Below are positions 29,001-30,773 of a stretch of 64,000 nt of DNA, in pieces. This DNA comes from an uncultured Acidobacteriota bacterium (GTDB taxonomy: Bacteria > Acidobacteriota > Vicinamibacteria > Vicinamibacterales > 2-12-FULL-66-21), in assembly GCA_963764925.1 (NCBI GenBank), contig CAVXUR010000015.1, positions 57,576 through 121,575 on the forward strand, given 5' to 3'. Numbering within the stretch: the first letter of the stretch is position 1; the number at the start of each line of letters is the position of its first letter. Made by a program: the position numbers and the translations under genes. The notes under the pieces are model-generated. The model saw nothing but the letters and a program-made list of their open reading frames with translations, did no database searches and was not told the origin of the DNA.

Positions 29001-30597
29001 ATGTCGATCGTGCTGTCTCGGTCCAAGTTCTACACGCTGCTGATAGTGTTCGCCGCCGGAGCGTCGCTGACGCGCTCGGCCGAGCCCCTCACCTCCTCCC
29101 CGCGAACTGAAGTCTCTGTGGGGGCCCGGCAGACGACGACTGCGACTAATCAGGCCGCAGGAGCGGCCGCTGCGCGTGCTCATTGCGCAACGTGCCACAA
29201 ATGGCCGCCCCCCGACGCGCTGCCGAGAGACAGGTGGCGCGACGAGATTGCCAGGATGTTCCTGATTCAGATCAACCAACCTGAACCGAGCGGTCCGCCG
29301 GGAACGGCGGGGCGTATGGTGAAGCTGCCGGTGGAGTGGCAGTCGATCGTCGGGTATTACGAAGCGAACGCTCCCGAGCAGCTGGCCCCGCTGGCTACCT
29401 GGCCGGCACCGGATCAGGCGTCTTCGTTCCGGAAGCGAGTGGTCTCGACTGCGAGCCGTCCAACCAACCAGGCGGTGGCGAACGTTCGACTGGTCGATCT
29501 CGACCGCGATGGACGGCTCGAGATCGTGTTGAGCGATCTACGCAACGGCATCGTGTATAAGACCAACCCTCGAGACGAGCAGCACACGTTTTTGGAAATA
29601 GCGCGACTGTCGCACCCGGCGCACATCGAGCCCGTCGATCTCGATGGCGATGGGATGCTCGACCTGCTGCTCGGCGATCTGGGGGGAGTCTCGCCGGCCG
29701 ATCACGATCGCGGTGCGGTAGTGGCGCTGCGCGGGCGTAAGGACGGGGCCTTCCAGCCGATGACGCTCACGAGTTGGCCTCGTGTGTCGGACGTCGAAGC
29801 GGCGGATTTCGACGGCGACAGCCGTCTGGACCTGGCGGTAGCGGCGTTCGGGTGGCGGCGCACCGGCGCCTTCACGATCCTGACGAACGAAACCGTCGAC
29901 TATGCCAAGCCGGCGTTTGTGCCCCATCAGATAGACAAGCGCACGGGATCGATTCACGCCATTCCAGTGGATGTGAACGGGGACAAGAAGCCCGACGTGA
30001 TCACGCTGTTCGCCCAGGAACACGAGACCGTCGTCGCATTCTTGAACCAGGGGCGCATGCAGTTCGATCCGCAGGTCATTTACACCGCTCCTCATCCCGG
30101 CTGGGGTTCTTCTGGGATTCAGGTCGTCGATCTCGACAAGGACGGAGATGTCGATGTTCTGATGACAAACGGCGACACGCTCGATGACCAGCTCGTCAAG
30201 CCGTACCACGCGATCCAGTGGCTCGAAAACAGAGGCACGTACCCATTCATCGAACACACGTTGGCGGCGATGCCGGCGGTGCACAGGGCACAGGCCGCGG
30301 ATCTCGACGGCGATGGCGATCTGGACATCGCCGCATGCGCGCTCGTGTCATCGGCAGCCGTCGATACGCGTGGCCTCCCCTCCGTGGTGTGGCTGGAGCA
30401 GACGCGACCGGGTGTGTTCGAGCGGCACGTGCTGGAAGCGGGGCTGCCGGCGCACGCCACGCTGGATGTCGGAGATATCGACGGCGACGGCGACATGGAT
30501 ATCGTCGTCGGAAACTTCACGCTCGACACGCCGGTGCAGGGGCTGATCGACGATCTTCGAGAATCTTCACGTCTCGAGGACCGGTTCTCGTCACTAG
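29001..30597 (+). CDS. secreted FG-GAP/VCBS-repeat protein with N-terminal CxxCH motif; true 3' end uncertain
   Basis: Signal/TM segment SKFYTLLIVFAAGASL, then CATCH (c-type haem-binding-like) at HCATCHKWPPPDALPRDRW. Repeated DLDGDGxLD / DFDGDSRLD / DLDKDGDVD / DIDGDGDMD FG-GAP motifs. The ORF-track end at 30710 reads through repeat element A2. A +1 shift near 30552 gives ...LIDIFENLHVSRTGSRH* with TAG at 30595-30597. Confidence 0.75.
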
Positions 30598-30773
30598 TCT
30601 CGTCCGGGGGACTTCGTCCCCCGGACCCCCTTACACGCTCGCTCGCGGGGACCCAGCGCCCCGCTCCGCTCGCGTGGCTCACTCGCTACGCTCGTTCGCG
30701 CCGTTTATGAGATGGCTTTTAGTTCCACGGATCACACAGACAACCCGGATCGGGTTTATGAGATAGGTTCTAT
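30594..30773. repeat. family-A modular intergenic repeat, copy A2 (forward)
   Basis: Hairpin ccggggga-cttcg-tcccccgg (30604-30624) followed by ACACGCTCGCTCGCGG. A 30-nt block at 30672-30701 is identical to the reverse complement of 19871-19900. The tail motif GTTTATGAGAT(A)GG occurs twice (30703-30724 and 30753-30773), and the second copy is identical over 21 nt to 60886-60906. Confidence 0.85.

Follow-up and report, generated by a model that had tools for sequence, protein, structure and literature searches.

A mosaic, GC-rich family of intergenic repeats, probably of the MITE type, inserted at TAG in Vicinamibacterales (Acidobacteriota)

What kind of element are the short, hairpin-rich repeats that lie between genes in contig CAVXUR010000015.1, from an uncultured bacterium of the Vicinamibacterales (Acidobacteriota)? 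Three copies of such a repeat, here called family A, had been noticed in a 64-kb stretch of this contig (positions 57,576 to 121,575; hereafter the window, to which all coordinates refer). The original prediction read them as interspersed elements of the repetitive extragenic palindromic (REP) or miniature inverted-repeat transposable element (MITE) kind, with a hairpin under selection for its structure. After following these copies through related genomes, we put at about 80% the probability that family A is a family of non-autonomous MITE-type transposable elements. The copies are numerous and widely spread, they have terminal repeats and covarying hairpins, they lie between genes, some of them are old and orthologous, and at least one is a discrete insertion with a duplicated TAG.

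The repeats themselves are well above what chance would give. The hairpin pattern CCGNGGGNCTTNGNCCCNCGG has three matches in the window, at 20003-20023 on the minus strand and at 30604-30624 and 60810-60830 on the plus strand, where 0.19 would be expected by chance. The 21-nucleotide (nt) tail GGTTTATGAGATAGGTTCTAT is 21/21 identical between 30753-30773 and 60886-60906 (chance expectation, 0), and the 30-nt block at 30672-30701 equals the reverse complement of 19871-19900 with no difference. Both of the stem changes between the hairpins at 30604 and 60810 (G-C vs A-T and A-T vs G-C) are compensated, and the third copy has a G-T intermediate at one of these two positions. Thus everything that had been described of the hairpin, the tail, the block and the stem is present. 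The bodies of the three copies are 106-182 bp long, hold no conserved open reading frame (ORF) and are GC-rich (family A has ~66% G+C, the window 64%). Annotation with Pfam places all three between genes, as had been claimed.

Evidence for mobility comes from the copy that follows the FG-GAP gene. Homologs of this gene encode proteins of 505-535 amino acids (aa), none of which spans the last 37 residues of the 569-aa ORF of the window; they end at the TAG with which the element begins. L202, the contig that encodes the closest homolog (P0001, 91% identity), is collinear with positions 23339-40757 at 93-95% nucleotide identity, and across these 17 kb of synteny the sole large indel is a 122-bp element (alignment gap at 30599-30719). 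Bases 7288-7291 of L202 (TAGT) align to both of its edges, at 30595-98 and at 30720-23. The empty sites read ..CGTGAG TAG TGCC.. in L197 and L202 and ..CGTCGC TAG TTCC.. in L198, and the filled site of the window reads ..CGTCAC TAG, then the element TCTCGTCC...GGCTTT TAG, then TTCC... There is therefore one TAG in each of L202, L197 and L198, and there are two around the 122-bp insert in the window, so this copy is a discrete insertion with TAG duplication, in agreement with the REP/MITE-like reading. A second comparison of this kind is provided by L079 and L075, in which a copy is present and absent, respectively, at one site.

In the window, a 1-nt insertion ~45 nt upstream of the TAG puts the FG-GAP stop out of frame. 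The shifted frame (frame 0) ends in TIFENLHVSRTGSRH and a stop, matching the C-terminus of P0001 (TIFENLRVSRTGSRE and a stop); since this frame ends at the TAG, the extension of the ORF into the element is spurious, as had been suspected. Other conserved genes of the window are also broken. Besides the FG-GAP gene (1 nt, at ~30545), the amine oxidase at 30818-32265 lies in three frames and the tail of a kinase gene lies in a second frame (20041-20841 vs 20168-22843), and these are intact in L202. Given these broken genes and the 34 gap openings per 10 kb between the window and L202, the frameshifts are likely indel errors of the long-read assembly rather than pseudogenes.

The empty-site comparison also corrects the limits of this copy, hereafter copy 1, which had been given as 30594-30773. 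It occupies 30595-30722 on the plus strand, 3' of the FG-GAP gene and 5' of that for a flavin amine oxidase. Its left TAG (30595-30597) is also the native FG-GAP stop codon, its right TAG is at 30720-30722, and the 122-bp body between them (30598-30719) belongs to sub-family v2 (nhmmer whole-element E=5.8e-28). The body begins with a shortened left repeat, TCTCGT, which is followed by hairpin 1 (CCGGGGGAC TTC GTCCCCCGG, 30604-30624, with covariation at alignment columns 16-31 and 20-27) and by the mirror segment H, CCCCCT (30626-30631), which mirrors the hairpin 1 3' arm TCCCCC and matches its purine arm GGGGGA in parallel. Then come a long-range stem (CACGC at 30634-38 with GCGTG at 30672-76) that encloses hairpin 2 (GCGGGG at 30645-50 with CCCCGC at 30659-64; pair types CG, GC and AU in the alignment), a CTCGC-rich block and a tail hairpin. 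The element's own tail, the right terminal inverted repeat GTTTATGAGATGGCTTTTAG, is at 30702-30722. The 21/21 tail at 30753-30773, which had been assigned to this copy, belongs instead to a separate mini-element at 30723-30773 on the plus strand, made up of TTCC ACGGATCACACAGACAACCCGGATCGG and the tail GGTTTATGAGATAGGTTCTA, which we call the E-type unit.

This E-type unit (TGCC or TTCC-ACGGATCACACGGAYRACACGGATCGG plus the same tail) is found in L197 and L202, which are without copy 1, and is missing from L198; by this comparison it is older than copy 1. Elsewhere, E-type units adjoin family-A copies in either orientation (L034, L065 and L035). Two insertions in turn have struck the TAG at the FG-GAP site, that of the E-type unit first and that of family A second. 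The core 9-mer of the E-type unit is also seen at 44912-44938 of the window, where three tandem GTGATCCGT (complement ACGGATCAC) lie between genes, and it recurs in L034, L053 and L065.

The other two copies of the window fit the same plan. The limits first given for copy 2 stand: it is a short form with a v1 head and without hairpin 2, at 60801-60906 on the plus strand (nhmmer E=2.8e-16), with hairpin 1 (CCGAGGGGC TTT GCCCCTCGG) at 60810-60830 and the mirror segment CTCCCC at 60832-60837. It has the same deletion form as the copy of L095, and its ends have decayed to CAAG...TAT. It lies between the stop of a MacB/FtsX permease gene (60977) and the ATG of the prolyl oligopeptidase gene (60787), both on the minus strand, and so within the peptidase 5' leader, between a TGGCATAAT box and the Shine-Dalgarno sequence and ATG. 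The ATG at 60787 yields the protein on record, and the N-terminal extension of the peptidase ORF into the repeat is spurious, as had been proposed. This copy is missing from the upstream regions that were read, those of the 19 closest orthologous loci of prolyl oligopeptidase, and no family-A module came to light when all 80 such loci were scanned for its motifs. Boxes of the TGGCATAAT type are present in 11 of those 19 loci (exact in seven), ~20-70 nt upstream of the start codon.

Copy 3, given before as 19845-20033, is refined to 19851-20032 on the minus strand. It has a v1 head and TAG at both ends (20032-20030 and 19853-19851), with hairpin 1 and the mirror segment at 20023-19996. It lies between convergent genes for SBP_bac_11 (stop at 19788) and a Ser/Thr kinase-PD40 protein (stop at 20041). 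Nested between its hairpin 2 and its CTCGC block is a 53-nt long hairpin, TTCCGCCTTCGC..GCGGAGGCGGG (19907-19959, minus strand), which we call module D.

How large is the family? The prediction counted three copies, which is right for the window but far from the total. When a single genome of each species was scanned with a pattern whose anchor lies outside the hairpin (GGACNCCCNNACACGCNCNCTCGCG), family A was found at no fewer than 115 loci from 41 metagenome-assembled genomes (MAGs), nearly all labelled Acidobacteriota or Vicinamibacterales. A profile of the head module counts 144 copies in the scanned loci plus the window, ~0.97 Mb, so that at least 144 copies are present in ~1 Mb of related DNA. 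Taken together, the density of ~1 further copy per 31 kb, seeding matches aside, and the three copies in the 64 kb of the window suggest a few hundred copies per genome. Two loci, L070 and L096, come from MAGs labelled 'beta proteobacterium' and 'Caldimonas sp.'; they are probably mis-binned Acidobacteriota contigs rather than cases of horizontal spread. No copy was found in 856 kb of metagenome contigs with prolyl oligopeptidase orthologs (80 loci, 63-86% identity), and the head pattern had 0 matches in viral contigs. The family is therefore limited to a clade within the Vicinamibacterales. No match at the gathering threshold of Rfam 15 was found over the whole window, the best sub-threshold score, on two copies, being 18 bits against a threshold of 34, and literature searches yielded no description of repeats in Vicinamibacteria.

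Viral contigs were more informative about the tail. Most matches to the tail pattern there are chance matches in AT-rich phage DNA, the exceptions being L290, L251, L266 and L293. L290, an IMG/VR contig with 58% GC, carries three 134-bp MITEs (3631-3764, 10633-10767 and 11448-11580), bounded by CTAGAAGCYATCTCATAAATG on one side and by its complement on the opposite side; these 20-nt terminal inverted repeats are identical to the family-A tail. The tail, being common to different elements, thus appears to be a real terminal inverted repeat (motif CTAGAAGCYRTCTCATAAA). In family A the right repeat is 21 nt long (GGTTTATGAGAYAGCTTCTAG) and the left is its inverse minus 6 nt, that is, CTAG and TCTCAT with a 6-nt gap; in the E-type unit one end only is seen. 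Internally the L290 elements have other hairpins (GGGGCTAAAGCCC and GTCGCGGCTGAAGCCGCGAC), and their flanks have short repeats of the TCACnnGTCAC type. L251, L266 and L293 have one such tail each.

Both ends of a full copy carry (C)TAG, no trinucleotide is more common than TAG at the head position, and tandem copies share a single CTAG (L054 and L043). Where the ends deviate, they do so together: TAA/TAA is found in L078 and in L103, and CAG is found at all three junctions of the L043 dimer. These matched rare variants within a copy favour a true 3-bp duplication.

The anatomy of the family was established from an alignment of 35 copies and one of 112 copies (A2). A full copy is ~120-150 bp long, with two to four independent GC-rich hairpins inside, and its modules follow in a set order: (C)TAG; TCTCAT; hairpin 1, as CCGAGGGGC-TTC-GCCCCTCGG or CCGGGGGAC-TTC-GTCCCCCGG; an A and then CTCCCC or CCCCCT; ACACGC; CTCTCGCG; hairpin 2, in the forms GCGCGCCG/CGGCGCGC, GCGAGCCG/CGGCTCGC or GCGGGG/CCCCGC; CTCCGYTC; GCGTGG; a CTCGCTCGC block; an optional spacer hairpin; and the tail. 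Heads and second hairpins recombine, with a v1 head joined to a v2 hairpin 2 in L110, L045 and L014. No alternative head module was found upstream of any match to the mid-module. Module D is nested, as in copy 3, in at least eight other loci (L014, L031, L043, L050, L053, L073, L097 and L103), and a solo copy is at 57539-57607 of the window. The long GC-rich hairpin unit at 57539-57607 and 19907-19959 reads GTCCGGCTTCCGCCTTCGCC...GGCGGA...AGCCGGAC, with the core GCTACGGCG..CGCCGTAGC in other loci, and looks like an independent REP-like repeat family inserted into family-A copies. The mosaic forms probably arose by internal deletion (copy 2), by nesting of a small hairpin element (module D in copy 3), by repeated hits on the regenerated TAG (copy 1 beside the older E-type unit) and by the swapping of modules from one sub-family to another.

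The hairpins of the copies are conserved as structures. Over the 112 copies of A2, hairpin 1, the CACGC/GCGTG stem and hairpin 2 amount to 23 pairs, with a paired fraction of 93.2%; nine of the pairs have changed on both sides (130 cells), which 0/500 shuffles matched, and pairing drops to 34-53% in slid controls. Selection on structure, which had been proposed from two compensated changes, is in this way borne out on a much larger set; the prediction would have fallen with only three copies and no covariation. The long-range stem is doubly compensated, from CACGC/GCGTG to CTGGC/GCCAG, in L110 and L045. RNAalifold finds hairpins 1 and 2 independently, and for either strand the folds of the window copies have z-scores between -2.2 and -3.6 (copy 1, -56.3 kcal/mol, z=-3.4; copy 3, -88.8 kcal/mol, z=-2.95). 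The covariation mostly separates sub-families, and independent compensatory events are few. The count of G-T vs A-C mismatches, which would indicate the structured strand, is confounded by sub-family differences in hairpin 2.

Placement relative to genes was counted with a model of codon log-odds for which the loci themselves supplied the training set; it replaced a too-crude plain GC3 threshold and is itself heuristic, so that the counts are approximate. Of the copies flanked by co-directional genes, 50 have the tail upstream and 23 the head; a further 25 copies separate divergent genes and 20 separate convergent ones. The claim that the repeats occur in either orientation is upheld by these numbers. 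Of the genes that read into the head, 23 of 51 have their stop on the head's TAG (or on a TAA or TGA in its position), and hairpin 1 is then at a fixed 7 nt after the stop codon; at the tail, a convergent gene has its stop on the CTAG in 4 of 15 cases. Where a gene starts beside the head, the start codon is mostly within ~15 nt of the element end, hairpin 1 is ~7-13 nt upstream of the ATG, and the foot of the hairpin (CGGAG/CGGA) is at the ribosome-binding position. This fits an element that seeks TAG or TA in a GC-rich genome and is filtered by selection against gene disruption. In such genomes the TAGs open to insertion are mainly stop codons and positions just 5' of starts, so that copies come to sit exactly at gene ends, and many genes now have a strong hairpin beside their stop or start.

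We propose that the element inserts at TAG, often within CTAG, with a 3-bp TAG duplication, and that its mobilisation in trans would depend on a DDE transposase able to recognise the terminal repeat common to these elements; this enzyme may be IS5- or IS630-like and target CTAG or TA. The hairpins may be kept because they are co-transcribed in 3' or 5' untranslated regions and affect mRNA decay or translation 7 nt from the stop or start, or alternatively because they are needed for propagation of the element. Several observations weigh against a MITE, however. No inverted pair of tails 0.3-4 kb apart flanking an ORF was found in ~1 Mb, nor was an autonomous partner or transposase with these ends, and a DDE transposase alone would not explain the covariation of internal hairpins. 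The family is GC-rich, while classical bacterial MITEs are A+T-rich (PMC2229807). The left repeat has just 10 nt, interrupted by a gap, a single end of the E-type unit is recognisable, and the exact TAG is at the canonical position in just 24 of 125 heads. The 50:23 orientation bias fits selection but also fits a strand-specific, single-strand transposition. At the L075/L079 and L108/L114 orthologous sites the element has been kept and is at least as conserved as the flanking genes, which could reflect function or gene conversion and not pure selfishness.

The main rival explanation is unlikely. According to it, family A would be a REP-like element, akin to the bacterial interspersed mosaic elements (BIMEs), or would derive from insertion sequences (IS) of the IS200/IS605 type, with the hairpins acting as signals for an HUH (Y1) transposase on single-stranded DNA; insertion would take place 3' of a TAG, the element itself would end in TAG, and the duplication would be just apparent. 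The TAG at both junctions is compatible with this as well as with a MITE duplication. Several independent local hairpins covary, as expected if they are needed in single-stranded form for propagation, the build is mosaic like that of BIMEs, GTAG closes some of the tails, and the ends are asymmetric, one right end being joined to different left parts (A-type and E-type). The orientation bias, together with a coding-strand asymmetry of -0.19 over whole loci (p=0.0005), fits a replication-linked strand specificity, and RAYT-like 'TIRYT' transposases with flanking repeats have been reported from other Acidobacteria (PMC3733652). Yet the relatives in L290 have 20-nt terminal inverted repeats at both ends, which IS200/IS605 elements do not have, and the two ends of a copy carry the same rare variant (TAA/TAA twice, CAG three times), which is what a true duplication would produce. 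Neither hairpin 1 nor hairpin 2 has a GTAG or CGTC tag, the GC skew shows no significant relation to element orientation (mean -0.003, p=0.10), and no Y1 transposase was noticed beside the copies, although no search aimed at Y1 was made.

The position of the hairpins could instead mean that the copies are primarily cis-regulatory RNA elements of the host, leaders or trailers that were duplicated, rather than selfish mobile DNA. We consider this very unlikely, even though hairpin 1 lies 7 nt after stops and, on the other strand, 7-13 nt before starts in dozens of loci, where its CGGAG/CGGA foot would act as a ribosome-binding site. Retention of orthologous copies, conserved at least like the neighbouring genes, the covariation and the biased orientation would agree with such a role, and REP hairpins within 15 nt of a stop are described as stalling ribosomes (Liang et al. 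2015, as cited in PMC5082802). But the neighbouring genes are functionally unrelated; the copies are in both orientations and in all four intergenic types, in roughly genomic proportions; close relatives are without individual copies with nothing else changed; and tandem and nested arrays, terminal repeats with target duplication and the lack of an Rfam match all speak for mobile DNA. Least probable are intrinsic-terminator-like hairpins that mark 3' ends, an alternative that the prediction had left beside the REP/MITE one. GC-rich hairpins do follow stops closely in many copies, and the tail of copy 1 has one weak terminator-like match. The bases after hairpin 1, however, are ACTCCCC or ACCCCCT and not a T-run, there is no T-run after hairpin 2 or on the other strand of either, and a consensus scan gave no match on these two hairpins. 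Furthermore, many copies are upstream of genes or between divergent genes, and at L079 the element comes after a separate, canonical terminator. A promoter in the reverse-complement tail was also considered, with TCTCATAAAC as the -10 box, and was rejected: the final T is missing, the consensus scan gave no promoter, and copy 2 is downstream of the conserved TGGCATAAT box of the prolyl oligopeptidase gene itself.

One further regularity of the head is not part of the MITE-type reading. After a constant GGA, six bases form the mirror image of the 3' arm of hairpin 1, and they follow the purine arm in parallel. Written as purine arm, 3' arm and next six bases, the haplotypes are GAGGGG / CCCCTC / CTCCCC in 71 rows, GGGGGA / TCCCCC / CCCCCT in 16, GGGGGG / CCCCC(G)C / CCCCCC in four and GAGGGA / TCCCTC / CTCCCT in one. 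The change is thus threefold, from A/T/T to G/C/C at position 2 and from G/C/C to A/T/T at position 6. In A2 (columns 15-43), the parallel 'pairs' are AT in 85, GC in 23, GT in three and other in one copy at the first variable position, and GC in 81, AT in 19, GT in 10 and other in two at the second, while slid controls gave nothing. Such a head might form an intramolecular triplex, as a unit of purine arm, loop, pyrimidine arm, loop and mirror pyrimidine segment; this would be of the pyrimidine-motif type on the strand shown, or of the purine-motif type (G.G-C and A.A-T) on the other strand. We regard this as improbable. One sub-family is mismatched (8-10 rows), the linker is just 3 nt, and successive C+.G-C triples are disfavoured at neutral pH. 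Moreover, the states are sub-family haplotypes with few independent events, and the search pattern left two of the six third-strand positions free. In the L075/L079 pair all three position-2 partners differ while the next 75 nt are ~98% identical, a difference that gene conversion of the head could explain. Watson-Crick registers for the mirror segment were rejected, since each leaves an A-C mismatch in both sub-families and the covariation unexplained. If real, the triplex would be the first in a bacterial mobile or untranslated-region element to have covarying base triples, and it could signal to a mobilising enzyme or block polymerases, ribosomes or nucleases; should the mirror regularity prove structural, family A would be a natural system for the study of triplexes in vivo.

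How does family A compare with known repeats? It is an undescribed, mosaic, GC-rich family of the MITE type, ordinary in kind rather than a new kind of system. Bacterial MITEs, for which the criteria and the Correia/NEMIS, ERIC/YPAL and CIR families have been reviewed (PMC2229807), share with it a length of <200 bp, the lack of coding capacity, multiple copies, target duplication seen in empty vs filled sites and 5'-TA-3' termini; it lacks their A+T-richness, and its left repeat is truncated. Like Correia/NEMIS of Neisseria and ERIC/YPAL of enterobacteria, which are ~100-170 bp long, non-coding, intergenic and present in hundreds of copies, it has TA termini, target-site duplication, apparent terminal inverted repeats and empty and filled sites between relatives; those families are co-transcribed with their neighbours as stable stem-loops (PMC2229807). 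Unlike them, family A has ~66% G+C, a chain of local hairpins instead of one end-to-end stem, a shortened left repeat and a duplicated target TAG that is usually a stop codon, and it has no sequence similarity to them. With the BIMEs and REPs of E. coli and Pseudomonas it has in common a mosaic of short GC-rich palindromes in variable order, located 3' of stops, with pairing kept (PMC3733652), but it differs in its terminal inverted repeats and TAG duplication. The 20-40 nt palindrome with a GTAG or CGTC tag that defines a REP is not found in it, the hairpin flanks being TCTCAT/GGAC and CTCGCG/CTCCG.

CIR of Caulobacter and Brucella resembles family A in its GC-rich hosts, separate stem-loop arms, TA termini and uncertain mobilisation (PMC2229807), but CIR has a GANTC methylation motif and no reported terminal repeats, and family A has neither this motif nor sequence similarity to it. 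BOX of Streptococcus pneumoniae is likewise modular (A-B(n)-C), with variable modules, a stable RNA and an unknown mobilising enzyme (PMC3049150), though host, base composition and sequence differ and BOX is without a defined TAG target. Among the transposases that could serve, both IS630 and IS5 elements use (C)TA(G) targets, make short duplications and regenerate the target at both junctions, as seen here; in family A, by contrast, the duplication is apparently of 3 bp (TAG) and not of 2 or 4, and no transposase gene was found. IS5-family elements target YTAR/CTAG, and the terminal repeat may resemble IS5-type ends. For IS630, the target is TA within CTAG (Tenzen and Ohtsubo 1991, as cited in PMC2170065).

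These repeats matter in practice as well. With its 120-180 bp and a few hundred copies in each genome, such a repeat fragments short-read assemblies, gives rise to false ORF extensions, as for the FG-GAP protein and the peptidase, and can mislead annotation. What is known of the Vicinamibacterales, which rank among the most abundant bacteria in soil, comes almost entirely from metagenome bins. With a defined consensus, TAG target and boundaries, family-A copies can now be masked and annotated, and pairs of empty and filled sites can serve as markers for strain typing. The family also illustrates clearly how a mobile element can persist in nature by landing exactly on stop codons and a short way 5' of starts. 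Because it places a strong hairpin 7 nt from the codon, it probably changes how many unrelated genes are expressed.

Some minor observations may be added. The extended -10-like box TGGCATAAT at 60919-60927 on the minus strand has one-base variants, such as TGTCATAAT, at orthologous loci whose upstream gene differs, and this type of box probably marks a promoter type of the clade. In another lineage, tandem GTAG-tagged REP-like palindromes (GTAGCGCAGGCCTTCAGGCCTGC...) are upstream of a prolyl oligopeptidase ortholog (L126, ~150-430); they belong to a different repeat family in an analogous position. Finally, an (AGAAGAC)n/(AGAGAC)n array at 52764-52925 of the window, between the end of a permease gene and the next gene, is followed ~60 nt later by its imperfect inverted complement, TCTGTCTCCTGTCTTCTGACTCC, the two forming a 50-56-nt inverted repeat.

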